A program made the translations under genes and the position numbers. Below the pieces are notes generated by a model. It saw nothing but the letters and a program-made list of their open reading frames with translations, ran no database searches and was not told the DNA's origin. A stretch of DNA of 64,000 bases from Fibrobacteria bacterium (lineage in GTDB: Bacteria; Fibrobacterota; Fibrobacteria; UBA11236): contig JAYTHY010000006.1 in the NCBI GenBank assembly GCA_043732185.1, positions 46,338 to 110,337 on the forward strand, written 5' to 3'. Below are positions 1 to 50,970 of the stretch, in pieces (the stretch's first letter is position 1; each line of letters opens with the position of its first letter).

Positions 1-1
1 A

Positions 2-931
2 GGCAGGTGGCGTGCCTGGGCTTTTACTGGCAAAAGGATTGTTGGCGGCAAAAGGATTATTAGCAGCGAAAGGATTCGCGCTCGGCGCGGCAAGCGGGTT
101 GGCTTGTGGCGCACTGGTTGGGGGCCGAAAGCCGGGATCCGGTGGTCGGGATACTGGGTTCTGTGGCCCTGGAAAGGAAGGCCGAGCGGCGGGTCCACCA
201 AAGCCAGGAAAAGGTTGGGGCGCGCTTATGGGAGGACGCATAGCAGGCGCCGCGGGCGAAGCTTGTTGTGTGGGCTTGGCAGCCGAGGCGCCTAACGAGG
301 CCGCATCACCTGGACGAGCGGTGCGTCGAGTCCCTTGAAAGCCCGCGTACTTGGCATTGAACTTATCGATTACGTATTTTCCAATTCCCTTTAAAGTTGT
401 AAAAACACCCACACCTGTTGCAGCAACTGCTTCATAATGAGGCAGTTTTAATTTATTCAGCAATTCATTGAGCTGATCCACGGAATACACATTGGGTAAA
501 TCGCGTTTGTTGTACTGAAGCACCAAGGGAATGTTTTCGATGGAATGTCCATATTCCCTTAGGTTCTCTTGCAGGTTGGCAAAACTTTCCAGGTTTTCCT
601 GAAGCTTATCCACTTGTGAGTCCACTACAAAAACCACGCCATCCACCCCGCGTAGCACAAGTTTTCGGGTGGCATTGTAATAGACCTGGCCTGGCACGGT
701 ATACAATTGGAACTTGGTCGAAAAGCCCTTAATGGATCCCAAATCGAGGGGAAGAAAATCGAAAAATAGAGTCCGGTCCGTTTCCGTGGCCAAGGACACC
801 ATTTCACTTTTATCCTTGTCCGGTATTTTTCGATGAATAATCTGTAAATTAGTGGTTTTTCCGCTCAGCCCAGGACCGTAATAGACGATCTTGCAGCTGA
901 TTTCCCGGGTTGCGTAATTAATAGATGCCAC
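2..931 (-). CDS. mglA: MglA-family small Ras-like GTPase with long Pro/Ala-rich C-terminal extension (partial, runs off window start)
   Basis: Not in the ORF track. Manual translation from GTG at 931 (GAGG RBS upstream) gives MASINYATREISCKIVYYGPGLSGKTTNL...ETDRTLFFDFLP...LYTVPGQ...QYNKRDLP. P-loop, R53, Q82 and NKRD match MglA. The frame stays open to position 2. Confidence 0.95.
   Translation of the reverse strand, partial: MASINYATREISCKIVYYGPGLSGKTTNLQIIHRKIPDKDKSEMVSLATETDRTLFFDFLPLDLGSIKGFSTKFQLYTVPGQVYYNATRKLVLRGVDGVVFVVDSQVDKLQENLESFANLQENLREYGHSIENIPLVLQYNKRDLPNVYSVDQLNELLNKLKLPHYEAVAATGVGVFTTLKGIGKYVIDKFNAKYAGFQGTRRTARPGDAASLGASAAKPTQQASPAAPAMRPPISAPQPFPGFGGPAARPSFPGPQNPVSRPPDPGFRPPTSAPQANPLAAPSANPFAANNPFAANNPFASKSPGTPPA
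30..103 (-). repeat. Imperfect 18-bp in-frame tandem repeat encoding ANPLAAPS-ANPFAA-NNPFAA-NNPFA
   Basis: + strand gcaaaaggattgttggcg / gcaaaaggattattagca / gcgaaaggattcgcg, inside the MglA tail. Confidence 0.85.
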
Positions 932-945
932 AGGATTTTCCTCGG

Positions 946-1287
946 TTACTTAATTAAGGGGCTGACTTGAGCGATTTCCACCCGGATCAAGCCGGTATTG
1001 GCCTGGCTGTCCGCAAGCACAACCAGATAGCCTAATTCTACAACCTGGACAAAGAACTTGCCATCGCTTGCTTCAATCATTGTCTGCATCAGTTGACCCG
1101 CCTGTGCATTTGCAACAATTTTATTGGCCACCTGCTGTACCGAAACGATAAGGGCGCTGATGAATTCTGAAGGAACCGGAGTCCTGAAGTGGGACACAAT
1201 CTCAATCCCGTCCGGACTGACGATACTCGAACCTTTGACGCCCTTGATCTGGTTTATTCTCTCCAATATAGTAAGCATTCCATTCAA
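946..1287 (-). CDS. Roadblock/LC7 domain protein (MglB/MglC-like)
   Basis: 113 aa with GVKGSSIVSPDGIEI...G.LMQTMIEASDGK...YLVVLADSQANTGLIRVEI, a typical Robl_LC7 pattern; directly upstream of mglA. Confidence 0.88.
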   Translation of the reverse strand: MNGMLTILERINQIKGVKGSSIVSPDGIEIVSHFRTPVPSEFISALIVSVQQVANKIVANAQAGQLMQTMIEASDGKFFVQVVELGYLVVLADSQANTGLIRVEIAQVSPLIK

Positions 1288-1712
1288 CTCCGTATATAGC
1301 CACGTTCATGTAAGAGGCGGGCAATGGCAAGGGCCCCGCGGTCTATCCGAAATTTGAATAAATCATAACTTCCCCGGGTTCCGGCGACGACGAGAAAGAA
1401 TAAGTCCAATTGTCCCAAATTGACTATCAAGTGAAAATGATGTTCATCAAACGACACAGAATGTTCCAATGGGCCCATCCCCAGCATTCTGTATTGAGCC
1501 AACGATTCCTGAAAACTGGCTAGAAAATAAGGGGATTCGATAAAATGGTTTTGCTGGCTCTCCTCTCCCCAGGCCACGACCAACCCTTCGCGACTGTAGA
1601 GAATGGCTCCGGTAATACCCTTCACCAGACTTAAGTATCCAAGGCATCGGTCCAAATCCTGTGACTCAACGAGCTTGTTGATGTCAGTGGGTGCCAGATC
1701 GAGTTTACTCAT
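1284..1712 (-). CDS. Second, divergent roadblock/LC7-like protein
   Basis: KGITGAILYSREGLVVA...LGMGPLEHSVSF...FFLVVAG...LFKFRI follows the roadblock pattern; 4-bp overlap with the next gene. Confidence 0.65.
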   Translation of the reverse strand: MSKLDLAPTDINKLVESQDLDRCLGYLSLVKGITGAILYSREGLVVAWGEESQQNHFIESPYFLASFQESLAQYRMLGMGPLEHSVSFDEHHFHLIVNLGQLDLFFLVVAGTRGSYDLFKFRIDRGALAIARLLHERGYIRS

Positions 1713-2583
1713 GAGTCAAATTACCTACTGCGTGAGGCCCCATATTGGCGCGCACTTTGGCCGAAGCGGCCTGTTTTTGAAAAATATTTTCCGCTCGTAC
1801 CATGGTCAGCAGGGATTGGTTGATGTTTCCAGTTACAAGCTCGAGACATTCTGCGCCCATATGCAGAGAGGTCACCGTCAAATTCTGGAAGGAAAAACAG
1901 ATCTTGTGAATTTCTCCACCCTCCAACGCATCACACGTATTGGCAATGGCACCCGGAAGAATTTGTGGCAGTAAGTTGACCAAGGAGGCGAGATTCGAAT
2001 TTCGGCTGGTGGACTTGTATCGGTTTTGCGCCTGATTTCCAAGAACCAATGCCTGCGTATTGTCATCCATCACTAAACTTTGATAGATACCAAAATCTCC
2101 CTCACCGAGCTCGAAGGCCGCCATATTAGGTGTGGAAATTGCCGGAGGAACCGGAAGAATGCTGGCTGCCGCCGAAAAAGAGGCCACTGGAGTGACTGCA
2201 CCCAATGAGTTCGCGGGAACTTCTGATGGCCGTCCTTGCCATGCCATCCATTCTAAATAGATACTCGATTCGAGCAGTGACAAAGCCACCAAATCGTTGG
2301 GATGCCGGTGCAGGTGCGAAACCAGCTTCTGTTTCACCTGTTGGTGTTCACCGGTTTCAATCCCGATTTGGGTCTGTAAGTAAAAAACCATATCCTTGAA
2401 TCGCGTAGTTTGCTTGCCTTCCAAACTTTGCAAAACATGATTGGCCAAATCGTATTTCTTGCGCCGAATAAGCAGACATGCATACGCTAGAGTACTCGAA
2501 CTTTGAATAAAACTCTGGCATATCACATCCCCCATGAGGACGCTTTCGGCGGTTTTAACTTCGTGCTGGGTTGCCGTGGACAT
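1705..2583 (-). CDS. N-terminal TPR-like region, low-complexity linker and C-terminal roadblock-like domain
   Basis: Helical N-terminus (KYDLANHVLQ...HLHRHPNDLVALSLL); C-terminus DALEGGEIHKICFSFQNLTVTSL...LELVTG resembles the roadblock beta-sheet. Confidence 0.55.
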   Translation of the reverse strand: MSTATQHEVKTAESVLMGDVICQSFIQSSSTLAYACLLIRRKKYDLANHVLQSLEGKQTTRFKDMVFYLQTQIGIETGEHQQVKQKLVSHLHRHPNDLVALSLLESSIYLEWMAWQGRPSEVPANSLGAVTPVASFSAAASILPVPPAISTPNMAAFELGEGDFGIYQSLVMDDNTQALVLGNQAQNRYKSTSRNSNLASLVNLLPQILPGAIANTCDALEGGEIHKICFSFQNLTVTSLHMGAECLELVTGNINQSLLTMVRAENIFQKQAASAKVRANMGPHAVGNLTHE

Positions 2584-2591
2584 TCAAATTC

Positions 2592-3683
2592 TCATTTAAG
2601 TTGGTAAGTTTTTTTGGTGATTTTCTTATACACCGGTTTATTTCCAATCGGGCCGCTGACCTCGTTTGGAACCAATGCCCCCTCTTCAACCAGCACTTTT
2701 AGAGTCGCAGGTAGATTGTTTTGCCTATCCGCATGATCCACCAGTAGCACTTCAATATTATCGTACGCAAAATGATTCGCTATTTTCATTGCATACCCTC
2801 CCTGTGAGCTCTGCTTGGAAGTCGATGAAAGGTCTAGGCTGAGGAACCAATAGGAAACGAACCGCAAGACCAGGGCCAGCAGCAAAAACATGAAAGCCGT
2901 ACCCAGTACCATGGCCGTTTTCCTATCCTTTTCATTTTGGGGATCGGCAGCGGCAGGCAAATCGATTTCCTCGACCGAATCCGCCACTGGGGCGACAAAC
3001 CCACCCTCCCATAAATTTACAAGGCATTCGGAGAGTCGGAAAGAGCCAAAGGGAACTTGTTTGGCGATTTGTGCCACGCTCTTCCGTCCATCAACCAGCC
3101 CCAACACCAAATAGTCCCAGCCTAATTGGTCGCCGTCATAGGTTTTTTCCATGAGGTTGAAAACGACTTTGGGATCGGGTATGGACTCCTTAAGTCGCGG
3201 CCACTCATCTATGCGCCGCATTCCCTCCATACAGGCAAATTCTGTGGAAATATTCAGTTGCATGGAAATGGAGGATTGCGCCTTTAGTCCGGTCCCAAAA
3301 TCATATTGCCCTTTGAGCCATCCAAACAGTTCACAAACCATGTCCTCGGAAATGATCTGTAGCCATTCTTTCTTGTCCTCATCGGTCAAATGACCTTTGG
3401 CGGCCAAGGTTGTCAGCAAGGGACGATTCATTTCTCTGGACATGGACTCCAGTTCATGCATCTCATCCTTTTCCACCTTGCCGGAGGCGATCAGCATTTC
3501 TTTGATAATATCCTCGGGCATCTCGCCATTCACTCTAACTCCATTGACATTGCCAGCGGAGATGAAAATTTCAGCCTTTTCTTTCCCGTTAACCAAATTG
3601 AGCACACCGGACTTGCGCTGTTGCAACAATAGTTGCAGGACATCGGCCAGAGAGAAGTCTTTTAAATCCCCGGAAAGCTTCAT
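2592..3683 (-). CDS. DUF4388 (PatA_N-like) domain membrane protein with C-terminal pseudopilin/GspG-like segment
   Basis: MKLSGDLKDFSLADVLQLLLQQRKSGVL...ELFGWLKGQYDF...MEGMRRIDEW; one TM helix; C-terminal LPATLKVLVEEG...GPIGNKPVY. Confidence 0.85.
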   Translation of the reverse strand: MKLSGDLKDFSLADVLQLLLQQRKSGVLNLVNGKEKAEIFISAGNVNGVRVNGEMPEDIIKEMLIASGKVEKDEMHELESMSREMNRPLLTTLAAKGHLTDEDKKEWLQIISEDMVCELFGWLKGQYDFGTGLKAQSSISMQLNISTEFACMEGMRRIDEWPRLKESIPDPKVVFNLMEKTYDGDQLGWDYLVLGLVDGRKSVAQIAKQVPFGSFRLSECLVNLWEGGFVAPVADSVEEIDLPAAADPQNEKDRKTAMVLGTAFMFLLLALVLRFVSYWFLSLDLSSTSKQSSQGGYAMKIANHFAYDNIEVLLVDHADRQNNLPATLKVLVEEGALVPNEVSGPIGNKPVYKKITKKTYQLK

Positions 3684-5899
3684 CGAAAAGTCTCCTTTTC
3701 GACGGCAGCGGAAGCAGCCATCAGTTCACCGACATTGACGGGAGTGCGGAGGAGCTTGATATTGAACAAAAGATAAAATAGCGCGATAGGTAGCCAAGGC
3801 AACCAGTGGAAAGGGCCAATCACAAAGCTGGGATACTCCATGAGGAGGTGGTTCACTTGCCAAAGGCCGCCCATCAGAAATCCTGTTGCCAGAATCCAAA
3901 CAAACCGCCCCGTGCCCAAACCTAAAAACAAAAGTCCGGTCCCTGGCCAAAGCGAATTAAGCACGGCTCCGATACGCAAGCGTTGTACGGTCGAGCGCAT
4001 GCGCATACGTTTTACCATTTCCATTTTCACCCGGTTATCATGAATTCCGGAAACTGTTTTAAAACATGTGTGACAATGCACGCCTTTACGACAAAGACGG
4101 CACATGACCCGGTTACAAATTTTGCAGTCGAACAAATCCTTCCCATGGCTATGTTGAGAATGATGTCGAAAGCGGAAATGCAGCAACAAGGCGACGATAC
4201 CGACCATGGCGAGCAGCCAACCACCCATAATTTCATAAATTCCGGTACTGACCCACACACCTAGAAAATCCAATCCAATCAAAGAATTCCACGCTGCGGT
4301 CCAAGCCAACCGATTTCTCAACATGGGATCCATCGCCTTACGTGTGGCCGGATACTCAGGAAAATATTCGTCGTTGTCCTTCAAAAACTGGTTGACCCAT
4401 TGTGGGTCCACCTCGGCTGCTCGATCCAGGTATTTTTTATGCCGAGTCGAATTGTTGGAATACAATTCCGCCTGACTGGAGTTGAACCATGTTTCCACCA
4501 TGTTGGGCGCAATTCTACGGGCTTCTGTGAAAGCGGTGGACGCGCCGGTGTAATCAAATCCCACCATAGCCAGATTCCCATTATTGAGAAGCACATACGG
4601 ATTGGAAGGTTCAATTTGAGACGCCAAGCGGCCAAATTCTCCTGCCTTAATATATTCTCCTTGCTTTTTATAGGTCAAGGAATAGGCCAGGCTGCGATAA
4701 AGACTGTCTTCCTGGGTTTTGGCTTTGAAGGCTTCCATTCGCGTGATTAGGGGTGCTTCATATCCGCGATTATAGGCGCGGTGATAAAGATTGACTCCCA
4801 GGGTATCATCCAGGTGACGCACCATGGTTTGCTCCCACATAAAGAGGAATGGGATCAAGGCCAGACCCGTCATCAGGACTTTTAGAAAAGTTTTTTCTTG
4901 ATTGGTCACATGTTTCCAGAGCAGCATGGTAAAGGCCAGGCCCAATGCCACATACCCCAATCCACCTATCATCAGGCTTAAAGGAAGGAGGGCCAAAGCG
5001 AAATATCGGATCCAGATTTCCACTTGATTCGGAAGCCGCTCGACCCATAAATGGGTGATGCGCGAAAAGTATTTTCCGAAGAGAACCAGCAAGGCAACTG
5101 CGCCAAAAAAGGCCAGGCCCATGCGAAAGGCACGAGACATATTGACTATGAAAAGAGATTGGCTGTCGTAATATTGCAGCAATCTGGCAGCCTCGGTGAG
5201 CCGCGTCCAAGCGGCGCTCAAATCCCAATTGAGCGGGGGCTTTTCCCGGAACTCCATCTCCATCAATATAAAAGGAACCCAAGGACAGAGCGGATCGAGC
5301 TTTCCAGCAAACTCGGCAGCCTGTCTCGCGACCAAATATAAGCCCTGGCCCATCGCCTCACGGGCACGGAGCAATTCCAGCTTCGCGAGTTCGGGAACCT
5401 TGATATAGCCTTTTTCCAGCATGTTGCGCTGAACTTCCAGTTGTAATAAATGCGCTCTTTGGTACAGCCCGTTTTGGGTAAGAATCCTAGCCATTTCATA
5501 GTTAACGGCAATGTTACCTTTGGCCAATTGGGTTGCCATGAGGAGTTCCGTCTCGCCATTGCCAGCCTTGGTTTTGTCCAAAGCGAGACCCACGCTGAAA
5601 TTGGCCCATAAATCGGCAAAGGTCGGCGCCTCCGGATTGGTCACGGCTGCAGGATGTGCTTCACGCACATGCTGGATAAGGACCGGGAGCTCTGTCGCAC
5701 TGATGGAATTGGCGAAAAGTTTTATGCTGGGGGGGAAACGTTCTTGAAAATCCCAACGCGAAAACACGGTTTCCCGCAGCGATTCCAATACTTGAACTTG
5801 GGCCATAAGAGGAGCCGCCAGGCAAAGCAGCAGCCTGATACATCTAATAGGGTTGATCAAATCACTCCCAATCCAGGGTGAAACAAGACAAGCCTCCAA
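3680..5899 (-). CDS. Polytopic membrane protein with TPR repeats and a Cys-rich zinc-finger-like segment
   Basis: Several hydrophobic stretches, TPR-like helices (EPSNPYVLLNNGNL...APNMVETWFN) and CKIC-x4-CRLC-x5-CHTC; start uncertain. Confidence 0.75.
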   Translation of the reverse strand: MEACLVSPWIGSDLINPIRCIRLLLCLAAPLMAQVQVLESLRETVFSRWDFQERFPPSIKLFANSISATELPVLIQHVREAHPAAVTNPEAPTFADLWANFSVGLALDKTKAGNGETELLMATQLAKGNIAVNYEMARILTQNGLYQRAHLLQLEVQRNMLEKGYIKVPELAKLELLRAREAMGQGLYLVARQAAEFAGKLDPLCPWVPFILMEMEFREKPPLNWDLSAAWTRLTEAARLLQYYDSQSLFIVNMSRAFRMGLAFFGAVALLVLFGKYFSRITHLWVERLPNQVEIWIRYFALALLPLSLMIGGLGYVALGLAFTMLLWKHVTNQEKTFLKVLMTGLALIPFLFMWEQTMVRHLDDTLGVNLYHRAYNRGYEAPLITRMEAFKAKTQEDSLYRSLAYSLTYKKQGEYIKAGEFGRLASQIEPSNPYVLLNNGNLAMVGFDYTGASTAFTEARRIAPNMVETWFNSSQAELYSNNSTRHKKYLDRAAEVDPQWVNQFLKDNDEYFPEYPATRKAMDPMLRNRLAWTAAWNSLIGLDFLGVWVSTGIYEIMGGWLLAMVGIVALLLHFRFRHHSQHSHGKDLFDCKICNRVMCRLCRKGVHCHTCFKTVSGIHDNRVKMEMVKRMRMRSTVQRLRIGAVLNSLWPGTGLLFLGLGTGRFVWILATGFLMGGLWQVNHLLMEYPSFVIGPFHWLPWLPIALFYLLFNIKLLRTPVNVGELMAASAAVEKETFR

Positions 5900-5918
5900 A
5901 AATCCCTGAGCCGTAGCA

Positions 5919-7322
5919 TCAGGATTGCGCTTTTAAACCGTATCGTTCAATCTTCCTATAAAGCGTGGAAATATCCAACCCCAGAATCTTGGCTACGGTC
6001 GGTTTATGCCACTGATTTTCGGTAAGCACCCAAAAAATATAAGCCTTTTCGATGTCGTTGAGGGTCGGTGATACGCCGACCCCAAAGGCGCGTTCCCCAG
6101 CTGGCATGGAACCGGAACCTTCCATTTTCCCTGTCCGTGGCAAGGTGTGGCCCTGATCCAGTTCAGTCACTGTTGTGCTGGGCAAGTCCAGCTCCAACGT
6201 TTCAATAGATTCACTGGTACTGAAGGCAATAGCCCTCTCTACCGCATTTTCCAATTGTCGTACATTTCCAGGCCAGGCATAGGCTTGAATTTGCTCTAGA
6301 GCGGTTGCGGTGAAAGACTTACGGCCTCCGCTTTTTCTTTGTAAAAAATAGTTTGCGAGCAGAATGGAATCTTCACTCCGCTCAGCCAAAGCCGGTGTAT
6401 TGATACGCAGCACATTGAGCCGATAGTACAGATCTTCCCGAAATTGTCCCTGCGCTACTGCATCCTCAAGGTTCACATTGGTCGCGGCTAAGATACGGAC
6501 GTCGATTCGAGAGGAAGCTGTGCCGCCAACCTGAGTGATTTCCCGCTCCTGGATGACCCTCAAAAGCTTGACCTGAGTGCGGAGCGGCATTTCCCCGATC
6601 TCGTCCAGGAACACGGAGCCACCGTTGGCAACGGCGAATAAGCCATCCTTGTCGGCATGTGCCGAAGTAAACGATCCTTTCACATGACCGAATAATTCCG
6701 ACTCCAGCAAACTCTCGGAAAGCGAAGAGCAATTGACCACTACAAATGGTTTTAAGGAACGCAAGGATTTTTGATGGATGAGCTTTGCCACCAGTTCTTT
6801 GCCGGTCCCGCTCTCCCCTGTAATGAGCACTGTGCTTTCCGAGGAGGCGATGGCGTTGATCCGGTCCTTAAGTTGGAGAAAAATCGGAGATTGACCGATT
6901 AACTCAACGCCTTGCCGTCGAATGAAGTCCTTCAGCTCACGGTTTTCAGTTTCCAGTGTCCGCGTTGCCACGGCCTTCTCGACCACTTTTCCCAAAAAAA
7001 CCATTTCGAAAGGTTTGGAAATAAAATCAAATGCTCCCAGCTTTACAGCCTCAACGGCCTTTTCAACTGTCCCATAGGCAGTCATGACAACCACAGGAAC
7101 CCGCGGGAAGCGGTCGAGCAGCGCCTTGACTAGGGTGAGTCCTGAACCTTGACCTAAAGCCAAATCAACCATGGCCAATAAGGGCTCAGGGCCATCCAAG
7201 AGCTTGAGTCCGGCTTCAACGCTATGGGCGGAAACCGTCGCATACCCTTTTTTTTCGAAAAACACTTCTAGCAGCGCACAAAGCGATACTTCGTCATCAA
7301 CGATGAGTACTTTAGGTTTCAT
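5919..7322 (-). CDS. Sigma54-dependent response regulator (NtrC/PilR/AtoC family: REC-AAA+-HTH)
   Basis: VLIVDDE receiver, GESGTGKE, GSFTSA, FLDEIG, FREDLYYRLNV, WPGNVRQL, C-terminal Fis-type HTH. Confidence 0.93.
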   Translation of the reverse strand: MKPKVLIVDDEVSLCALLEVFFEKKGYATVSAHSVEAGLKLLDGPEPLLAMVDLALGQGSGLTLVKALLDRFPRVPVVVMTAYGTVEKAVEAVKLGAFDFISKPFEMVFLGKVVEKAVATRTLETENRELKDFIRRQGVELIGQSPIFLQLKDRINAIASSESTVLITGESGTGKELVAKLIHQKSLRSLKPFVVVNCSSLSESLLESELFGHVKGSFTSAHADKDGLFAVANGGSVFLDEIGEMPLRTQVKLLRVIQEREITQVGGTASSRIDVRILAATNVNLEDAVAQGQFREDLYYRLNVLRINTPALAERSEDSILLANYFLQRKSGGRKSFTATALEQIQAYAWPGNVRQLENAVERAIAFSTSESIETLELDLPSTTVTELDQGHTLPRTGKMEGSGSMPAGERAFGVGVSPTLNDIEKAYIFWVLTENQWHKPTVAKILGLDISTLYRKIERYGLKAQS

Positions 7323-7382
7323 CCCGGCAATTATCTCACTTTATTCGAATACTGTCTGTTGGCCAAATGGAAAAGAGTACAT

Positions 7383-7410
7383 AACAAAAACCCGCCCAAA
7401 GAGGCGGGTT
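7383..7410 (-). terminator. Intrinsic terminator downstream of rpsT
   Basis: Minus strand AACCCGCC-tctttg-GGCGGGTT followed by TTTGTT. Confidence 0.8.
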
Positions 7411-7468
7411 CAACTACCGAAAATTAAGTTTAGCTCCACTCCTATTGGTGAAACCGTCGAATGCCACC

Positions 7469-7732
7469 TTACGCGGACTTGGCTGCAACGAGCTTGTGGA
7501 TCTTACGTTTGTAGTTGGAAGCCGTGTTTTTGGTAATGCCGGCTCGACCATTTTGGGCAGCTTTATCGAGCATGGAAAAAAGATGGGGCATTTCTGCGAC
7601 CATGGTCTCCTTTTTATCGGCCGTACGTATCTTCTTTAACGTGCTGCGAATGGCCGAACGAACGGCGCGATTGGCCAAACGGGATTTTTCTGCGGTAATG
7701 ACCCTCTTTTGGGCGGATTTGTTCTTGGCCAA
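7469..7732 (-). CDS. rpsT: 30S ribosomal protein S20
   Basis: MAKNKSAQKR...RLANRAVRSAIRS...MLDKAA...TKNTASNYK; TTG start with GGAGG RBS. Confidence 0.95.
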   Translation of the reverse strand: MAKNKSAQKRVITAEKSRLANRAVRSAIRSTLKKIRTADKKETMVAEMPHLFSMLDKAAQNGRAGITKNTASNYKRKIHKLVAAKSA

Positions 7733-7766
7733 AATTTCCTCCAGTAGCTTTCTAATTCGGAGGCTA

Positions 7767-7795
7767 AATCTATCAAATCACGTGGTTTTTTGCAA
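7767..7795 (-). promoter_or_regulatory. Putative sigma70 promoter of rpsT
   Basis: Minus strand TTGCAA-17 nt-TAGATT, with TGn extended -10. Confidence 0.55.
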
Positions 7796-7889
7796 TCCAG
7801 AAGCCTAAAAGCGGCAAAGATTCCCAGCTATACAGCTAGGTCCAGAAGGTGTTGACTGAACCTTCAAAAGGTGTTTGACGGAACCCTAA

Positions 7890-8543
7890 TCAGCCGGGAT
7901 AAAACTGGAACGGCACCCTAAAAAGGGCTAAAATCGGATAAATTAGCGGTTTCCAGAACCGAAACCAAAGGTCGATCAGTCCAAAACCGGAGCCCAAAGA
8001 TTCAAAAATCACAATGGCAATCAACGGATACATCCCCAAAGCAGCCATTTTAGCTTCATAGACATCCGCCACCCGGTCCGGCATGAATGTGGTGATGATT
8101 TTGGACCCGTCCAAAGGAAATACCGGCAATAAATTGAAAATCGCCAATGAAAAATTGATGAGAATGAAGTCTTGCAGCATCAAATACCAACCGGAATTAT
8201 CGAGGCCATACCCGACAAAGAAATAAACCAGACAGCCAACCAGGGCCAAGATCAGGTTGGACAATGGACCCGCAAACGAAACCAAGGGCATGGCGGCACG
8301 AGGATTTCTCAGTCTACCTGGATTGACAGGAACCGGCTTGGCCCAACCCAGGGGCATTCCGGTAAGCATCATCAAGGACCCAACCAGATCCATGTGCACC
8401 AGGGGATTCAAGGATAGCCGCCCTAAACGTTTGGCAGTGTCATCCCCTAGCCGGAAGGCTGTCCACGCATGGGCAGCCTCATGGAAGGATAAAGAAATCG
8501 ACAAGACGAAAAAGCGCATCAATAATACGGGAAGGATCTCCAT
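7890..8543 (-). CDS. Site-2 protease (peptidase M50)
   Basis: HEAAH zinc motif, NLLPVFPLDG, GWAKPVPVNP; hydrophobic. Confidence 0.93.
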   Translation of the reverse strand: MEILPVLLMRFFVLSISLSFHEAAHAWTAFRLGDDTAKRLGRLSLNPLVHMDLVGSLMMLTGMPLGWAKPVPVNPGRLRNPRAAMPLVSFAGPLSNLILALVGCLVYFFVGYGLDNSGWYLMLQDFILINFSLAIFNLLPVFPLDGSKIITTFMPDRVADVYEAKMAALGMYPLIAIVIFESLGSGFGLIDLWFRFWKPLIYPILALFRVPFQFYPG

Positions 8544-28108: not shown

Positions 28109-29095
28109 TTGAAATCCCAACCAACGGCACCACTAAAGATTTGTTTCGTCCTATCCTCCATTGGTGGTCCGCGCATGCTCAACCCACTGTTTTCCGGCAC
28201 TTTAAAACAGGACGTGGCTTATATCGTTATACAACGCTTGGCCGGGCCGGGCCTGCTCGATGTTTTAGTGGAGTGTCTACGCGAAGAGCTAAACGTTAGA
28301 ACCATGGTGGCGGGTCATTCCCTGCACCTGCAAGGCGGCATCCTTCACTTTCTTCCCAATGAGCGTCATTATGCATTCAAGGGGGACAAGCTTGTAGCCG
28401 TTGAACTACCTGCCAAGACTGAGCTTAGCCTGGATCATCTGTTTAAGTCCGTGCTGGACTTTCCCAATGCCTGCGCGGTAGTGGTACTTTCCGGCATGCT
28501 TACAGATGAAGACGGCTTAGCCGGACTCGCCGAGCTTAAAAAGAGAGGCGTGCACATCCTCGGCGCATTGGAAAATCAAACGCCCGTTTTCGATATGATC
28601 GAACAGCTGCGCACCTTAGGACTTATGGGAGAACTCCTTCCGACCAAGCACTTACTCGAACACTTGCGTTTTGGACCTGGGGATACAATTGGTTCTCTAA
28701 GGAGAGACGGATCTTCAGAAGCCGCAAAAGTTCTGGTCGCCGACGACGAGGAAAAAGTTAGGACAGTAATAGTTGAAATGCTGCTGTCGCAGGGGTTTGT
28801 CGTGGACTTTGCCGTAGATGGGCTCGACGCTTTACGTAAATTACAAAAACAACATTTCGACATACTTATCCTAGACTTGCACATGCCGGAAATGGATGGG
28901 CTCAAGACTTTAGAAGCCCTGAAAAACATTGATCCAAAACTTCCCATTGTAATCATGACGGGCAGCAACGATACAGCCAAGGTCCAGGCAGCCAAAGAAT
29001 TCAATGTTTTGGGAGTGCTGCAGAAGCCTTTCGGGTGGGAAAAGCTGAAAAAAATTCTGCCGCAGCCTAGCAGGCGTGCGGCAGAATTGAAATAA
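28109..29095 (+). CDS. Degenerate CheB-methylesterase-like domain fused to a C-terminal REC domain
   Basis: SSIGGP / IVIQRL / LDHLFKS / VVLSGMLTDEDG; C-terminal VLVADDE...DLHMPEMDG...KPF. Confidence 0.75.
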   Translation: MKSQPTAPLKICFVLSSIGGPRMLNPLFSGTLKQDVAYIVIQRLAGPGLLDVLVECLREELNVRTMVAGHSLHLQGGILHFLPNERHYAFKGDKLVAVELPAKTELSLDHLFKSVLDFPNACAVVVLSGMLTDEDGLAGLAELKKRGVHILGALENQTPVFDMIEQLRTLGLMGELLPTKHLLEHLRFGPGDTIGSLRRDGSSEAAKVLVADDEEKVRTVIVEMLLSQGFVVDFAVDGLDALRKLQKQHFDILILDLHMPEMDGLKTLEALKNIDPKLPIVIMTGSNDTAKVQAAKEFNVLGVLQKPFGWEKLKKILPQPSRRAAELK

Positions 29096-39212: not shown

Positions 39213-40727
39213 ATGCTCAGTCAGCTTTCCGATGCCCCGGACACACGCTATGATATCGTTAAGATTCTTGGTCAAGGCGCCTCTGCCACCGTTTATCTCG
39301 CCCGACATTTGGCGCTAGGGGAATTACGGGTACTCAAAATTCTGCACAATGACATGATGATGGATGCCAAGCGGCGCGCCAAATTCATGCTGGAAGCCCA
39401 GGTTTCCGCTCATCTTAAACATCCAGCCATCGTCCAGGTTTTTGATGTGACCCAATCCACTTCCAAGTTACAGATTGAAATGGAATACATCGAGGGCATG
39501 AGCCTGCGACAAACCCTGGAAAAGCAACAGTCGATTCCCCTATCGGTTTCCTTAGCCATTATCTACGGCATACTTGAAGGCCTTGAACATGCCCATCGCG
39601 CTCGGCTTACTTTTGGAAATACGGAATTCGATGGTGTCATCCATCGGGATTTGAAACCGGAAAACATTATGATCCGGAAAAATGGGCAACCGGTGATCTG
39701 TGATTTTGGCGTTGCCAAAGTGGGCGCAGATTTGATGACGATGACTCAGCACATCAGCGGCAGCGTTGCATATATGGCACCCGAGCGCCTGCGCGGAGAA
39801 CCAAGCACACGTTCAATCGATGTCTTTGCCCTAGGCGTGATGTTTTTTGAATTGCACAAAGGATTCCGACCCTTTAAAGGCAATAACAAAACCCAAGCGC
39901 TGGAAAACATTTTAAAGTGGAATATTGTGGACTTGGAACTGGAGTGGGTCGGCAGCGACGCGGAGCTGCTTACCATCATCCGAAAAGCCATGGCACAAGA
40001 TCCTTCCCAAAGATTTCAGGATGCCTCGCAAATGTTAGCCGCCATCCGCCCTATTTATAAGCTGTACCATGGCGAAGTTCCAGCCGCCACGGTCATTTAT
40101 GATTTTTTTGCAAGAGGACAATTTACCACGGCGGAATTCCGCGCCTTGCTGCATGAAAAGACCACTTGGAAGAGTCGCATCCCATTGTCCATCGGTGCCA
40201 TGGCATTGGCTGCCGTGGCCTATACAGCTTACCTGGCCTGGCCCAAATCATCGGCTTCAATTTCTCAAGGCGAGAAAACGCAGCCCGGGGATAGCGACGC
40301 GGACGAACAAAAAATACGTGAGCTGCCAAAGGATGAACAACAAAGAGCCTATTTCAATTTAGCACAAACACGATTTAATGAAAACCATGATGCCGGCAAA
40401 GCGCTCCTATTGGTGACCAAGGCTCTGGATATCTCCTTCCACCCAACCATCGCTTTACTAAAAGCTGAAGTTTTGCTCGACCAGTCAATGTACAACCTTG
40501 CCGAAGTGGAGCTTGCCCGAATTGAATCCTGGCTTCCTAAAATGACCACTGAGAATCAAGCCCAATACTATTGGCTATTTGCCGATTTGCAAATCCGTAG
40601 AGGCATCGGTGGATCCGATACAATCCTTGAAGCAACCAAAGCCGCATTAATCAAGTACCTGTCCCTAATTCCAAAAAATAATGTGGACGGTCAAAAGAAA
40701 GCCAAGCAACTGCTTCTTAGTCTTTAA
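39213..40727 (+). CDS. Hanks-type Ser/Thr kinase with TM helix and C-terminal TPR-like region
   Basis: GQGASATV, LK, HRDLKPEN, DFG, YMAPE, D..ALG. Confidence 0.93.
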   Translation: MLSQLSDAPDTRYDIVKILGQGASATVYLARHLALGELRVLKILHNDMMMDAKRRAKFMLEAQVSAHLKHPAIVQVFDVTQSTSKLQIEMEYIEGMSLRQTLEKQQSIPLSVSLAIIYGILEGLEHAHRARLTFGNTEFDGVIHRDLKPENIMIRKNGQPVICDFGVAKVGADLMTMTQHISGSVAYMAPERLRGEPSTRSIDVFALGVMFFELHKGFRPFKGNNKTQALENILKWNIVDLELEWVGSDAELLTIIRKAMAQDPSQRFQDASQMLAAIRPIYKLYHGEVPAATVIYDFFARGQFTTAEFRALLHEKTTWKSRIPLSIGAMALAAVAYTAYLAWPKSSASISQGEKTQPGDSDADEQKIRELPKDEQQRAYFNLAQTRFNENHDAGKALLLVTKALDISFHPTIALLKAEVLLDQSMYNLAEVELARIESWLPKMTTENQAQYYWLFADLQIRRGIGGSDTILEATKAALIKYLSLIPKNNVDGQKKAKQLLLSL

Positions 40728-46559: not shown

Positions 46560-47738
46560 TTACAGGAAGTTCATCAATGTATTCTGCATGGCCTTAGCCC
46601 CCATCTGCAGGGAAGCATCATAAATTGTTTTTTGCATGTTGTAATCGGAAATGGCCTGGGCGAAATCCACGTCTTCAATTCCGGATTGTAATTCCGAGGT
46701 ATAGACAGTGCGTTCATCATTCCGGATCTGCGTTGACTCAAATCGCTGCACGCGTGCACCATTGGCAGCCTGAGCCGAAAGCTGACGTTTGAAAGACAAG
46801 TCCAATTTATCAATGGATGAAAGTATTTTATCCGGTTTGTTATTCAATGTTCCTTCCATCAGATTAATCATGCCCTCCCAGGCATTCGTTTCCAGATTAC
46901 TGCCAAAGGCTTCACTGGCCGTTGTATTTATCCGAGCGGCGACACCTTCCTCAATTTCGCGGTTAGAGACGCCATCCAAATCTTTTTCGTTACGACGCAA
47001 CCAGTTGTAGGACATGTCGATGCCACCGCCCGCTGCAAGGGCCGTAGCGCCTGCAGTTAAATAGGTCACAGTACCTTTTACATAGTCCACGGTAAAGTCT
47101 GTCCCTTCCTTAAGTCCGTTGACCTTAAGAGTACCTGGGATAATCAAATAGGCATTTGCATCGTGAGTGACTGTATCCTTGGAATCATCCACGTTTTTGT
47201 CGATGACCTTAACAGGCACACCGACCGCCGGCATAGTCATGTCACCCGATAAAGCTCCGGGCGCAGTCAAAACGTGGGACGCGCCTCCACGGATTTCATA
47301 GGGCGGCACTTGGGAATTGGTTCCGGAAAAAATATATTCATCCTTGAAGGATGTGTTGGCCAGCGCAACCATCTGATCGAAAATAGCCCGGACCTCATTT
47401 CCGATGAAGAAACGGGTTTCTGAGGTATTGGAATCAGTCGCAGCTTGAATGGCGCGTTCATGCATGTTCTGATACAGGTTGTTGGAAGTAGTAAGAGTTG
47501 AGTCTACCGTTCCCAAATAGGCCTGCCCGTCATTTACATTTCTCTGAAAGCTATTGAACTGATCGATTTCGGAACGCAGTTCCATGCTCTGAGAAGTGCT
47601 TACGGGATTGTCCGAGGATTTATTGAGCTTTTTTCCCGTTGACAGCTGTTGCTGAACGCCCTCAAGTTTGCTGTAATTGGAATAGAGTCGTTCGAGTATG
47701 CGGGTACTGATTTGCGAAAAACTGATTCGGTTAGACAT
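46560..47738 (-). CDS. flgL: Flagellar hook-associated protein 3
   Basis: QLSTGKKLNKSSDNP, YIFSG, IEDVDFA, TLMNFL; adjacent to flgK. Confidence 0.95.
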   Translation of the reverse strand: MSNRISFSQISTRILERLYSNYSKLEGVQQQLSTGKKLNKSSDNPVSTSQSMELRSEIDQFNSFQRNVNDGQAYLGTVDSTLTTSNNLYQNMHERAIQAATDSNTSETRFFIGNEVRAIFDQMVALANTSFKDEYIFSGTNSQVPPYEIRGGASHVLTAPGALSGDMTMPAVGVPVKVIDKNVDDSKDTVTHDANAYLIIPGTLKVNGLKEGTDFTVDYVKGTVTYLTAGATALAAGGGIDMSYNWLRRNEKDLDGVSNREIEEGVAARINTTASEAFGSNLETNAWEGMINLMEGTLNNKPDKILSSIDKLDLSFKRQLSAQAANGARVQRFESTQIRNDERTVYTSELQSGIEDVDFAQAISDYNMQKTIYDASLQMGAKAMQNTLMNFL

Positions 47739-47756
47739 GATTAGCTCCCTGAAGTT

Positions 47757-49448
47757 CTATTGAATAGCCATCAGAATTTCCATCATCTGGCTGATGGTCT
47801 GTATGTATTTGGCCGAGGCCTTGTAACTGTTTTGGTATTTGATCATATTGGTCATCTCTTCATCCATAGAAACACCAGATATCGAACCCTGCTCCGAATC
47901 CATCTGGGCAATCAAAAACTCTCTGGTATCTTTCCTAGATTTATTTTCATTATTCTCGATGCCCATCTTGCCGATCACGGCACTATAGAAATCGCCAATG
48001 CTCTGCGTAGGTGAACCATCGGCATCATTGTTCATGGATTTTGCCAAACGAACCTTGGCCAGTTCAGCGGCATTGCCACCGTTTCCATTTCCAGAAAAAC
48101 CTGTAGTGTTGTAGGCAATTTTGACCGAAACGCTATCCAAGGCCGCATACCGGGCGTAATTCAGAAAGGTGATTGTGCCTTTTTCATAGTCGACAACATA
48201 GTCCTTACCCGCGCCTTCCTCGAGTACAATTCCGTTGGCTGCGCCGGATGTCATCGTGAGTTTTACACCGCCTTGAACCAGATTCTGGTATTTTGAATCA
48301 ATGGCGCTAAGGTCCAGAGTTGGGCTGGCAGCTAGTGGGATTGTAAGTGGTAAGGCTGCGACATCCGTGATTTTACCTCCTGCTGCTGCAGCGATATTAG
48401 CGCTATCTGCAAGCACGGAATCAGACAACGTCATGGTTCCTGCAGTGGTTTTTGTCGGGTCGAAAAAATATACGCCCGTGGCTTTGTTCAAAGTATAACC
48501 TGCAACGTGTACGGCATTGACCTGAGTAACAATGGCCTTAGCCAATTTATTCAATTGCTCTTTATATCCATTCAGAACTTTGCTGCGGGCATCCATTATC
48601 CCGCGCAAACTTCCACTGCGCGGTTCAAAGGGCTTGCCGGAAGCCATGAACTTGAGCCGCAGTTCAGTGGTCTGGGTGCCATCCGATAACGTTCTATCCA
48701 CTCCATATGTCCCGATTTTTAAAACCTCAGAAGCGCCTACCAGAAGATTGCCTCCTGATGTGATGGTCATTCCTCCATTTGAATCCTCAATAGTCTGTAT
48801 ATCAATGAGTTCCGAAAGCTTACGCACAGTCAGATCCCGTTGGTCACGGGCTTCATTGGCTTTTTGCCCCTTGCTGGCTTCTACGCCGACTATTTTTTCG
48901 TTCAAGAGATAAATCTGACCTGTCAAATCGTTCACAGTTTTAGCCTTTTGATCCAGGGGGCTATTCATGGAAAGACCGTATGCCTCGATTTCCTTGAAGG
49001 CGCTATGCAAGGTATCTGTGAGTACCAGGGCTGAAGATTTTACTGCCTCACGGGAAGAAAGATTGGCGGGACTGTTAGCCAAGTCCTGCCAGGAAGCCCA
49101 GAACTTATTCATTTGGGCCGCAAGTCCCGTTTCGGTTGGCTCTTTCAGTATGTTCTCCAACCGGGTATAGGCTGAAGCAATCTCAGTGGTCAAGCCCTTT
49201 TCTCCCATCTGTTCCCACGTTTGCCGATCCAGGAATTCGTCGCGGACCCTGGCGATGGTAGTGACCTCTACACCAATACCCTGCTGGCCAAAAACGTCGT
49301 TCCTAATCGAGGCCGCTTGCAAGTCGACGCGTTTACGGGAATACCCTTCGGTATTGGCGTTGGAAATATTCTGACCCGTCACGTCAATCTGGGTTTGAGC
49401 AACGTTCAATCCGCGCATCCCAATACCTAATGCATCAAATAATCCCAT
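47757..49448 (-). CDS. flgK: Flagellar hook-associated protein 1
   Basis: GQNISNANTEGYSR, DQRD, SGVSMDEEMTNMIKYQNSYKASAK. Confidence 0.96.
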   Translation of the reverse strand: MGLFDALGIGMRGLNVAQTQIDVTGQNISNANTEGYSRKRVDLQAASIRNDVFGQQGIGVEVTTIARVRDEFLDRQTWEQMGEKGLTTEIASAYTRLENILKEPTETGLAAQMNKFWASWQDLANSPANLSSREAVKSSALVLTDTLHSAFKEIEAYGLSMNSPLDQKAKTVNDLTGQIYLLNEKIVGVEASKGQKANEARDQRDLTVRKLSELIDIQTIEDSNGGMTITSGGNLLVGASEVLKIGTYGVDRTLSDGTQTTELRLKFMASGKPFEPRSGSLRGIMDARSKVLNGYKEQLNKLAKAIVTQVNAVHVAGYTLNKATGVYFFDPTKTTAGTMTLSDSVLADSANIAAAAGGKITDVAALPLTIPLAASPTLDLSAIDSKYQNLVQGGVKLTMTSGAANGIVLEEGAGKDYVVDYEKGTITFLNYARYAALDSVSVKIAYNTTGFSGNGNGGNAAELAKVRLAKSMNNDADGSPTQSIGDFYSAVIGKMGIENNENKSRKDTREFLIAQMDSEQGSISGVSMDEEMTNMIKYQNSYKASAKYIQTISQMMEILMAIQ

Positions 49449-49449
49449 T

Positions 49450-50064
49450 TCAAACGCTCCGATTAATCAAGTTGCGGATTTGAATTTTGCCAATACGAAC
49501 AGCACCCTTGGAGGAGTAGGTGTTCATTTTTTCATTCTGCTTGCGCCCGACCACGCTAGTCATGATGCCGACCGTGGTATGGATGATTCGGCTGCCATTT
49601 TCAACCAACGCCATGTTGATGCAAAGTATGCTTTTAAGTTCGCCAGTGGATTTGAGCAATGCTTCTCGGCAAATGCGCAGGCGCTCGGCTTGTTCAGGAC
49701 GCAGCAATGGGTAGATGTCCTCGCATTTAGCTTGGAACGAACCCTCACGTCCTTTAGTTATCCCCAGCAGCTTCTCGGTAATCACTACGCGCGCTTCCTC
49801 AAGAACGAACAAGGATCCTATCAACCGCTCTGACTCCACATTGGCATCGGAGTTTTCGGCCAGCTTCCTATTTACCAGCGCCATCCGTTGACGATTAGCC
49901 TGCAACAAGTACGCGTCGTAAAGGGCCAACTGAGCATTGAGATTGACGATGAGTTCTTCGCCCAGTAACGTTGGCTCCTCACCACGTGTCGGTTTCACTG
50001 CGGATTCCTGAAGCAAATCTTCGAACTCCCGGCCTAAGACCAATTCCTTGTATTTGAAACTCAT
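49450..50064 (-). CDS. flgN: Flagellar export chaperone FlgN-like
   Basis: Helical; LEEAR, N..L, TYSSKG, INRSV; directly upstream of flgK. Confidence 0.75.
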   Translation of the reverse strand: MSFKYKELVLGREFEDLLQESAVKPTRGEEPTLLGEELIVNLNAQLALYDAYLLQANRQRMALVNRKLAENSDANVESERLIGSLFVLEEARVVITEKLLGITKGREGSFQAKCEDIYPLLRPEQAERLRICREALLKSTGELKSILCINMALVENGSRIIHTTVGIMTSVVGRKQNEKMNTYSSKGAVRIGKIQIRNLINRSV

Positions 50065-50933
50065 CGTATCCTTTCCGAACCAGACGGAGCCGCAGCTTCG
50101 AATTCGCTTTTGGCTTTGAGGACCCGTTTAACATAGTCCTTGGTTTCCTGGTAAGGCGGAATACCGCCATAATGTTCTACAGCCGCGGGCCCGGCATTAT
50201 AGGCTGCTAAAGCCTTGCTTTCATCCCCCTGGAATTTTTCCAGAAGCTTCTTGAGGTAGCGGGTTCCCGCCAAAATATTTTCGTGAACATTGAAGACATT
50301 GCGCACACCAAGGTCGGTGGCGGTCGAGTCCATCAATTGCATCAAGCCTTTTGCACCGGCTTTAGAAACAGCCAAGGGTTGATTCGCCGACTCGACTTTA
50401 ATGACGCTTTTAATCAGGTTCGATGCGACGCCGTAGGTTTTAGCGGCAAAGTCCACAATGGGATTCAGTTTTTCGCTGGATATGGAAGCAGACTGGGGAA
50501 CCGATGTGTTACGGGAGGCTTGTCCCAACGTTTGGGCGGCGGCCGGCGTAGGTAGGGTATCGCCTTCTTTGCGGCTCAAGGACCGGTAGATTTGCGCAGC
50601 CATCCCGTTGGAAAGTCCGCTCATGGCATTTTTTAAACCTTGTTCACCGGATTCAAGCGGTGACTTGGCATGCATTCCCGCATATTGATTGTCCAACATC
50701 TCCGTAAAGATTTCCCGGCCTGGAGAAGCCTCAGTCAAATCATTTCCAGCGCTGGAGGCTGTCTCTCGCATAGCCTTATACATCTGACCAAGAAACATGG
50801 CCTCAAAATCGAGACTGGCTTTCCAACGTTTTCTTTCTGCGTCTGTGATTCCTGCTTTAACGCCCCCGGTTTGGCTTTTCAGGCGGTCCAGGCTATTTAA
50901 AGATTCCGGTGTCATGATCTTGATTCCCGTCAT
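50061..50933 (-). CDS. FlgJ-like rod-binding domain fused to an SLT lytic transglycosylase
   Basis: DFEAMFLGQMYKAMR...FTEMLD; IKVES, GAKGLMQLM, AAYNAG, ETKDYV. Confidence 0.88.
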   Translation of the reverse strand: MTGIKIMTPESLNSLDRLKSQTGGVKAGITDAERKRWKASLDFEAMFLGQMYKAMRETASSAGNDLTEASPGREIFTEMLDNQYAGMHAKSPLESGEQGLKNAMSGLSNGMAAQIYRSLSRKEGDTLPTPAAAQTLGQASRNTSVPQSASISSEKLNPIVDFAAKTYGVASNLIKSVIKVESANQPLAVSKAGAKGLMQLMDSTATDLGVRNVFNVHENILAGTRYLKKLLEKFQGDESKALAAYNAGPAAVEHYGGIPPYQETKDYVKRVLKAKSEFEAAAPSGSERIR

Positions 50934-50955
50934 TCGGCTTTAAATAGAGGAATAC

Positions 50956-50970
50956 GCAAAGGGCGTGCCA
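50956..50970 (-). promoter_or_regulatory. Sigma54 (-24/-12) promoter of the flgJ-flgN-flgK-flgL operon
   Basis: Minus strand TGGCAC-GCCCT-TTGC matches TGGCAC-N5-TTGC exactly, just upstream of the first gene. Confidence 0.85.

Follow-up and report, generated by a model that had tools for sequence, protein, structure and literature searches.

We describe a gene unit at the left end of a 64,000-nt stretch of DNA from a Fibrobacteria bacterium (UBA11236; assembly GCA_043732185.1, contig JAYTHY010000006.1, positions 46,338-110,337 of the forward strand), which is referred to as the window throughout. On balance, the seven genes found there are best read as the first seven of a conserved eight-gene unit of uncultured Fibrobacteria, which would encode a polarity switch built around the small GTPase MglA. 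The predicted order is an ntrC-like regulator gene, a gene for a membrane protein with tetratricopeptide repeats (TPR) and a zinc ribbon, a PATAN gene, a gene for a TPR-like and roadblock fusion, two genes for roadblock proteins of 142 and 113 aa, the gene for a long-tailed MglA and, just outside the left edge of the window, mglB. Since a canonical mglB follows mglA in the relatives, the unit would comprise four roadblock-fold proteins. We regard the locus as a real, lineage-restricted variant of a known polarity switch, for which a putative mechanism can be proposed from its parts.

A group-1 MglA with a long tail and its MglB

Judged by its sequence, the GTPase is a group-1 MglA with an intrinsic arginine finger and a catalytic glutamine. 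Its G domain matches M. xanthus MglA over residues 1-191 (E 1e-77) and T. thermophilus MglA (E 2e-71), and the motifs GPGLSGKT, D52-R53-T54, T78-V-P-G-Q82 and NKRD are present and invariant in 11/11 aligned sequences. The sequence features by which group 1 was defined (P-loop G1, R53-T54, TVPGQ and NKxD; Wuichet and Sogaard-Andersen, 2014, PMC4316618) were all found, whereas the single domain of about 190-200 residues that is typical of the group was not, as the part of the protein inside the window already comprises at least 310 aa. Across the first 147 residues a single position varies among the 11/11 sequences, in a neighbourhood where identity falls to 33-54%.

The additional length is due to a C-terminal tail. 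The window cuts mglA and holds the G domain plus the first 115 or so residues of a Pro/Ala/Gly/Phe-rich tail; the full-length protein has 547 aa in a related locus (L002), where it is 99% identical over the 310 residues of the window, and 547-703 aa in 10 loci. For comparison, Table S2 of PMC4316618 lists the MglA of F. succinogenes at 313 aa. The tail of 350-500 residues is of low complexity, rich in Pro, Gly, Ala and Phe (Pro 22-25%, Gly 8-24%), and carries short NPF-containing repeats (L002 9049-10692; window 2-346). An 18-bp tandem repeat of 2.7 copies is located at 29-76 of the window; no roadblock domain was detected in the part of the tail seen. Open reading frames (ORFs) on the opposite strand, such as 12-338 (+), are by-products of this biased composition. 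The tail ends in a motif of about 42 residues that is conserved in 10/10 loci, with basic and aromatic residues at its very end (…KKKGFFDGLFKK…). This motif presumably resembles the C-terminal membrane-targeting peptides of MinD/FtsA-type proteins.

The gene beyond the window edge was identified in the relatives. The proteins of L002 are 94-99% identical to those of the window, and a gene for a 161-aa protein begins there 3 bp after mglA; its product matches M. xanthus MglB (6h5b_B) over residues 4-157, the C-terminal region included (E 3e-28), as well as T. thermophilus MglB (E 5e-17). Sixteen related loci were compared, of which four end inside mglA and two before it; in the remaining 10, which extend past its end and are informative for mglB, an MglB orthologue follows mglA directly (10/10). 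The core of this protein (residues 2-118) is 89-99% identical, whereas identity in its tail drops to 44-56% in all but the closest relative. The position of mglB beside mglA is in agreement with the entry '<MglB<MglA' for F. succinogenes Fisuc_0226 in Table S2 of PMC4316618, the one entry for Fibrobacteres that we came across in print. Taking a Roadblock/LC7 domain, similarity that includes the C-terminal extension and adjacency to mglA as the marks of an MglB, the product of the downstream gene shows all three and is likely to be the GTPase-activating protein (GAP) of this MglA. The 113-aa protein encoded on the other side of mglA shows the domain and the adjacency and lacks the similarity. 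An earlier first-pass annotation of the window had proposed a self-contained switch that ends in an MglA with intact R53 and Q82. Both residues are in place; the ending is not, since mglA is cut by the window edge and followed by mglB in relatives, and the window lacks the canonical MglB on which a self-contained switch would depend.

Three further roadblock-fold proteins

The 113-aa protein scores 35 bits with Pfam Robl_LC7 (cut-off 23), and its profile finds Asgard roadblocks in the PDB (7yh1, E 3e-11; 9jue; 7f8m) together with dynein LC7, Rv3364c and CvnB5. Neither MglB nor MglC was among its PDB sequence matches, whether it was searched as a single sequence or as a profile, and hhalign of its alignment against that of the lineage's MglB gave a probability of 0.4 (both alignments are shallow and the comparison has low power). 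Because the canonical MglB lies beyond the left edge in relatives, the 113-aa roadblock should probably not be read as its equivalent.

The 142-aa protein passes the cut-off of Pfam MAPKK1_Int, the MP1/LAMTOR3 family (29.5 bits, cut-off 25), and 16/62 of its relatives bear a precomputed PF08923 tag. As a single sequence it has no PDB sequence relative, and its profile gave marginal LAMTOR3 matches only (E 0.45-0.65). The AlphaFold2 model, built from 31 sequences (mean predicted local distance difference test, pLDDT, 87.7; predicted TM-score, pTM, 0.84), shows the order alpha-beta-beta-alpha-beta-beta-beta-alpha, and Foldseek places it with MglB, a Thorarchaeota roadblock and p14/MP1 (TM-score on target 0.65-0.79, E 3e-06).

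The 292-aa protein belongs to no Pfam family. Its AlphaFold2 model (35-sequence alignment, mean pLDDT 81.9) comprises an N-domain of seven helices (12-117) and, joined to it by a disordered linker (122-161) whose length is hypervariable among relatives, a C-terminal roadblock fold (165-280), the latter resembling LAMTOR3/MP1, p14, M. xanthus MglB and Asgard roadblocks in the PDB (Foldseek TM-score on target 0.56-0.71, E about 2e-4). For the N-domain, a protein atlas returned generic TPR look-alikes only, which we take as a lead to a TPR-like fold.

The roadblock fold was thus found in all three extra proteins, with no MglC among their sequence matches. The first-pass annotation had called them roadblock-type, and this was borne out by Pfam for the 113- and 142-aa proteins and by AlphaFold2 and Foldseek for those of 142 and 292 aa; for the genes at 1284 and 1705 roadblock folding had been set beforehand as a test, and the models of both adopt the fold. 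Profile-profile comparison (hhalign) of the four roadblock alignments, that of MglB included, gave no significant pair (probabilities 0.2-0.9, from shallow alignments of low power), and given this lack of similarity to one another the four proteins are probably not recent duplicates. In a complex prediction of the 113- and 142-aa proteins with the MglA G domain the score was 0.01 against a mark of 0.32, in a run without controls, which weighs neither for nor against binding.

By the distribution of their relatives, the extra roadblock families are lineage-restricted. The 292-aa protein has 82 relatives, which bear only Fibrobacter-type names where they are named, and 34 representatives of its family were found at E <= 1e-3 among 1.84 billion; for the 142-aa protein 62 relatives were found, all 45-98% identical, and for the 113-aa protein 34, all at least 65% identical.

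Two membrane proteins

Two further products of the unit were recognized as membrane proteins, in accordance with the first-pass annotation, which had listed a DUF4388 membrane protein and a membrane protein with TPR and a zinc finger. The former, the PATAN protein, matches DUF4388 (PF14332) at 86.5 bits (cut-off 25) over residues 4-161 with an insertion, followed by basic residues that lead into a single strong hydrophobic segment (254-285), and by a poorly conserved tail of about 78 residues. The PATAN domain would accordingly face the cytoplasm. No Response_reg match was found in the 363 aa, so that the receiver domain of PatA-type proteins is absent, and no sequence relative was found in the PDB.

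The 739-aa protein shows sub-threshold TPR matches only in Pfam, and the protein atlas returned generic TPR look-alikes only. Three or so TPRs form a block at about 406-513 that matches consensus TPR designs (CTPR3, E 1e-06). Hydrophobic segments were located at about 14-41, 255-279, 293-328, 336-356 and 553-577, and the C-terminal region 640-720 is hydrophobic as well. Between them lies a zinc-ribbon-like loop, of which C592, C595, C600, C603, H608, C609 and C612 are invariant in 14/14 sequences, within a very basic segment (575-640; 16 K/R vs 4 D/E). Hydropathy and charge count, read by the positive-inside rule, suggest that this loop is cytoplasmic.

Gene layout and conservation

The seven ORFs (Table 1) all lie on the minus strand within 2-7322, and the largest gap between them is 19 bp, as the first-pass annotation had stated. 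At the six junctions, taken from the first gene to the last, the genes are separated by 19 bp, overlap by 4 bp, are separated by 8 bp, overlap by 8 bp and then by 4 bp, and are separated by 14 bp. Two of these junctions depend on the choice of start codon: if the 113-aa gene begins at its fourth codon, as in its 110-aa relatives, the 4-bp overlap before it becomes a 5-bp gap, and the start of the 739-aa gene was taken as the first TTG, whereas relatives align only from residue 10-38, so that the gap upstream of it is possibly longer. The title of the first-pass annotation named six of the genes and omitted the seventh, the sigma-54 response regulator. The hairpin that follows rpsT marks, as read from its stem and T-run, the upstream boundary of the unit. 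No strong terminator was found inside the unit, where weaker hairpins number 11 against 11.6 expected from shuffled sequence. The sigma-70-type site upstream of the first gene is no more than a match to the consensus, one of 13 such sites found against 7.9 +/- 2.9 expected.

The related loci were collected by the 292-aa family (35 pattern matches, 17 confirmed); 15 of the 16 come from metagenome-assembled genomes labelled Fibrobacteria, Fibrobacteres or Fibrobacterota and one from an uncultured bacterium. Order and strand are the same in 16/16 for every gene that the contig can hold, and all seven genes are present in 11/16. Since every ORF has conserved relatives, we conclude from these comparisons that the arrangement is not due to chance.

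The interval between mglB and tldD is variable (compare L003, L004, L008, L011 and L012), with 30-200 bp in four loci and inserts of 1.4-5 kb in others. The insert of L003 (9668-14568) holds four opposite-strand genes with no Pfam family, and that of L011 (7568-12625) a gene for a 1685-aa alpha-2-macroglobulin-like protein. Being variable, and on the opposite strand or unrelated, the inserted genes are not regarded as belonging to the unit.

Table 1. Features of the MglA unit, its flanks and the flagellar region. Positions refer to the window unless a locus is named; identities are those of related loci to the window.
Feature	Position	Strand	Size and evidence	Identity
NtrC-type sigma-54 response regulator, first gene of the unit	5919-7322	-	467 aa; Pfam REC + AAA+ + HTH_8	68-97%
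Polytopic TPR/zinc-ribbon membrane protein	3680-5899	-	739 aa; weak TPR, hydropathy, Cys6/His	38-94%
PATAN (DUF4388) protein, one membrane helix	2592-3683	-	363 aa; Pfam 86.5 bits	43-95%
TPR-like + roadblock protein	1705-2583	-	292 aa; AlphaFold2/Foldseek, no Pfam family	33-97%
MP1/LAMTOR3-like roadblock-fold protein	1284-1712	-	142 aa; Pfam MAPKK1_Int, AlphaFold2/Foldseek	54-99%
Roadblock/LC7 protein	946-1287	-	113 aa (probably 110 aa, start 1278); Pfam Robl_LC7	82-99% (14 loci)
Group-1 MglA, open at window edge	2-931	-	310 aa; G domain 347-931, tail start 2-346	93-97% (G domain)
mglB, directly after mglA	L002:10695-11180		Robl_LC7 44.9 bits; M. xanthus MglB match	
Sigma-70-type promoter-like site, 8 bp 5' of first gene	7330-7358	-	CAGACA-17-GATAAT, TG-extended; 9/12 matches	
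Terminator-like hairpin + T-run, 3' of rpsT	7388-7411	-	10-pair stem, 6 GC pairs, T-rich tail	
rpsT	7469-7732	-	followed by hairpin 7388-7411	
flgJ-like, flgN, flgK, flgL/flagellin-like run	46560-50933	-	flagellar genes	
Sigma-54-type -24/-12 match, gap just 5' of flgJ-like gene	50955-50970	-	one mismatch (TGGCACGCCCTTTGCG)	
Second PATAN/DUF4388 protein + cNMP-binding domain	51062-52120	-	directly upstream of flagellar run	

The first gene of the unit

The 467-aa regulator has the three domains of the NtrC family (Sigma54_activat 230 bits, Response_reg 76.7 and HTH_8 38.6) and stays below the cut-off of every NCBIfam equivalog. Its loop for sigma-54 contact (residues about 209-221) deviates from the GAFTGA of the family and reads GSFTSA; the form G[AS][FY]TSA was found in 14/14 sequences, with Ser at the fifth position kept in 14/14 orthologues. 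By contrast, the other sigma-54 activator of the window (55630-56730), which lacks a receiver, has GAFTGA. A sigma-54 promoter scan of the whole window gave 28 matches against 38.7 expected, with none upstream of the unit.

Proposed mechanism and points against it

Following the properties of the single parts, we propose that MglB acts as GAP on MglA and that the three extra roadblock proteins form one or more additional roadblock dimers, which would dock on MglB or on MglA side by side. A parallel to such dimers may be seen in the pairing of MglC with MglB in Myxococcus, or in the way roadblock dimers are layered in Ragulator. The switch would be fixed at a membrane site by three elements, namely the basic loop of the zinc ribbon, the PATAN domain on the cytoplasmic side and, in the 292-aa protein, the TPR-like N-domain; the PATAN domain is its most likely output arm and may, by analogy, act on a motor of the secretion or pilus ATPase type. 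The disordered tail of MglA (350-500 residues), together with its invariant terminal motif, could tether the protein to the membrane or to a partner. Precedents have been published for several of these steps: MglB dimers are the GAP of MglA (PMC13408092); the roadblock protein MglC bridges RomR and MglB, a contact broken by MglA-GTP, in an arrangement that the authors of that study liken to Rag-Ragulator with its stacked layers of roadblocks (PMC10329633); MglB is recruited by the zinc finger of GltJ, a membrane protein (PMC11135422); and PATAN domains are membrane-localised and bind both PilB1 and PilC (bioRxiv 10.1101/2021.06.11.447907). Any single contact in the proposed assembly is considerably less certain than the general picture.

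A bolder version of the proposal can be formulated, which we consider unlikely as a whole. In it the eight genes would encode a self-assembling, membrane-fixed GTPase platform, in which stacked dimers of four non-interchangeable roadblocks sit between MglA/MglB and two inner-membrane proteins and MglA is leashed by its disordered tail; this would be an operon-encoded counterpart of Rag-Ragulator, possibly directing the flagellar pole rather than pili or gliding. If the platform exists, it would represent a polarity system in a phylum where none has been studied.

Several observations weigh against the polarity-switch reading. The interactions within the roadblock complex, and its composition as a hetero-oligomer, are what we infer from the parts, and co-transcription is suggested by gene spacing. 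No pilus or gliding genes were found in the 64-kb window. Conserved order is weak evidence of functional linkage within one narrow lineage, since all 16 loci belong to it and the housekeeping flank is equally syntenic, with folC, an M50-like peptidase gene and rpsT before the unit and, in most cases, tldD after it; the co-conservation that the first-pass annotation had put up as a check was observed in 16/16 loci and has limited weight for this reason. No sigma-54 promoter through which the regulator could act on the unit was found within 1-8000. A membrane-targeting helix in the terminal motif of MglA is not supported by a scan of the hydrophobic moment, which is moderate there (0.25-0.37) and higher elsewhere in the tail, so that a role in membrane binding is weakly suggested at best. 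Moreover, if the basic zinc-ribbon loop of the 739-aa protein is cytoplasmic, its TPR block probably faces the periplasm, and the cytoplasmic handles would be provided by the zinc ribbon, perhaps together with the first 220 residues, rather than by the TPRs. The TPR scaffold of the SgmX type that had been suggested for this protein is a poor fit with such a topology: SgmX and Bd2492 are soluble cytoplasmic TPR effectors, whereas the 739-aa protein has at least five hydrophobic segments, two of which enclose the TPR block on the side opposite to the zinc-ribbon loop as predicted here.

Alternative explanations

It may be that only mglA and mglB, perhaps with the 113-aa roadblock, are functional together and that the other genes were kept beside them by recent common ancestry. 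The conserved order does not discriminate here, since synteny in these loci extends from folC to tldD and all of them come from one lineage; in addition, Table S2 of PMC4316618 gives F. succinogenes no more than '<MglB<MglA' within four genes. On the other hand, the six downstream genes are all joined by start and stop codons that overlap or nearly do so, the roadblock fold of three neighbours is the one known to regulate GTPases of the MglA type, and PATAN genes recur beside mglA/mglB in several other phyla (PMC4316618). We consider this reading unlikely. Still less probable, in our estimation, is that the 113-aa roadblock 5' of mglA is the cognate GAP and the downstream MglB redundant or active elsewhere. 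This protein does occupy the usual position of mglB, and its conservation is comparable to that of MglA; it matches no solved MglB in either type of search, however, whereas the 161-aa product of the downstream gene aligns with M. xanthus MglB along its whole length and has an equally conserved core.

The question of which machine is controlled is a separate one. The run of flgJ-like, flgN, flgK and flgL/flagellin-like genes in the window shows that this lineage of Fibrobacteria carries flagellar genes, and the module could position or regulate the flagellum or another envelope machine instead of pili or gliding, MglA and PATAN then acting on flagellar polarity. In favour of such a role, a second PATAN protein is encoded directly beside the flagellar genes, the site just before flgJ is one of only two one-mismatch sigma-54 matches in the window and the unit itself starts with a sigma-54 activator. 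Against it, about 40 kb separate the flagellar genes from the unit, the characterised MglA systems described in the sources cited here all act on pili, gliding or predation, and the view is limited to 64 kb of the genome. Core genes of Agl/Glt 'group B' are reported in Fibrobacter (Luciano et al., 2011, PMC3169522). We consider flagellar control rather improbable, a little less so than the 113-aa protein being the GAP.

Comparison with known systems

A close characterised counterpart is the polarity module of M. xanthus (MglA, MglB, MglC, RomR/RomX, RomY), which shares with the Fibrobacteria unit a group-1 MglA with R53, T78 and Q82, a full-length MglB orthologue and an extra roadblock fold beside the GAP, in M. 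xanthus MglC (PMC10329633). M. xanthus has this one extra roadblock, whereas there are three here, none of them similar to MglC or MglB in sequence. Furthermore, a single cluster here encodes all parts and the membrane proteins as well, mglB is downstream of mglA, MglA has a tail of 350-500 residues and no equivalents of RomR, RomX or RomY were recognised in the 64-kb window. GltJ of the M. xanthus Agl-Glt machinery is likewise a membrane protein, with a cytoplasmic zinc finger linking MglA-GTP and MglB (PMC11135422); the architecture of the 739-aa protein, polytopic, with TPR and a Cys6 loop between membrane helices, looks different, and the likeness is a functional analogy drawn without comparison to the GltJ sequence.

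Neighbourhoods of PATAN, MglB and MglA genes have been catalogued in Chloroflexi, Chlorobi, Gemmatimonadetes and Aquificae, for example '<PATAN<MglA<MglB<MglB' in Chloroflexus and 'PATAN>MglB>MglA>' in Chloroherpeton (PMC4316618 Table S2). The same three component types adjoin there, with up to two roadblock genes listed per mglA and none of the neighbourhoods reported in that study as experimentally characterised. In contrast to these entries, the present unit has four proteins with the roadblock fold, of which one is a fusion with a TPR-like domain, its PATAN protein is membrane-anchored and it further includes a sigma-54 regulator and a polytopic TPR/zinc-ribbon protein. With the cyanobacterial PatA-type (PATAN-REC) proteins the unit shares the PATAN/DUF4388 domain, described there as a membrane-localising output that binds PilB1 and PilC; unlike them, the PATAN protein lacks a receiver and has its own transmembrane helix.

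Rag-Ragulator (LAMTOR) also combines several different roadblocks with a small GTPase at a membrane, and both the MAPKK1_Int match of the 142-aa protein and the LAMTOR chains among the best fold matches point in this direction. In Ragulator, heterodimers of roadblocks are stacked on the roadblock domains that the GTPase dimer itself carries, and a lipidated wrap protein serves as anchor. In the MglA of this lineage no roadblock domain was seen in the tail, a p18-like lipidated anchor was not recognised either, and the similarity of the 142-aa protein to LAMTOR3 is marginal. The Rag/Ragulator analogy drawn in the first-pass annotation is not new, having been published for MglA/MglB/MglC (PMC10329633). 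As to its proposal of an undescribed system, a search of the openly accessible literature found no description of this type of locus; group-1 MglA in Fibrobacteres, PATAN beside mglA/mglB and, for a subset of group-1 systems, two MglBs per MglA (PMC4316618) are already in print. What appears to be new is the presence of four distinct roadblock-fold proteins around one MglA, the family of TPR-like and roadblock fusions, the membrane-anchored PATAN protein, the polytopic TPR/zinc-ribbon protein and the very long-tailed MglA, all in one conserved unit of an uncultured lineage.

The genes for regulators and effectors of MglA in Myxococcus lie at scattered sites of the genome, and their discovery took two decades. 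The association of PATAN with MglA/MglB has reportedly been noted since 2006 and is said never to have been explained. Here, a candidate full set, namely a GAP, three further roadblocks, a PATAN output and a zinc-ribbon anchor, would be encoded in one operon and provide a compact, testable parts list, which bears on the tuning of a small GTPase by roadblock layers, on the role of PATAN beside MglA/MglB and on how such a switch is fixed at the membrane. It also brings Fibrobacterota into the biology of MglA, along with an MglA whose disordered tail is very long.

Other genes of the window

A gene at 28109-29095 (+) encodes a protein with an N-terminal CheB-methylesterase domain and a C-terminal receiver, the reverse of the usual CheB order. 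Ser/Thr protein kinase genes are located at 39213-40727 (+) and 56781-59201 (+); the latter adjoins the gene for the receiver-less sigma-54 activator mentioned above on one side and, on the other, a gene for a TPR and periplasmic-binding-protein lipoprotein-like product (59232-61121).

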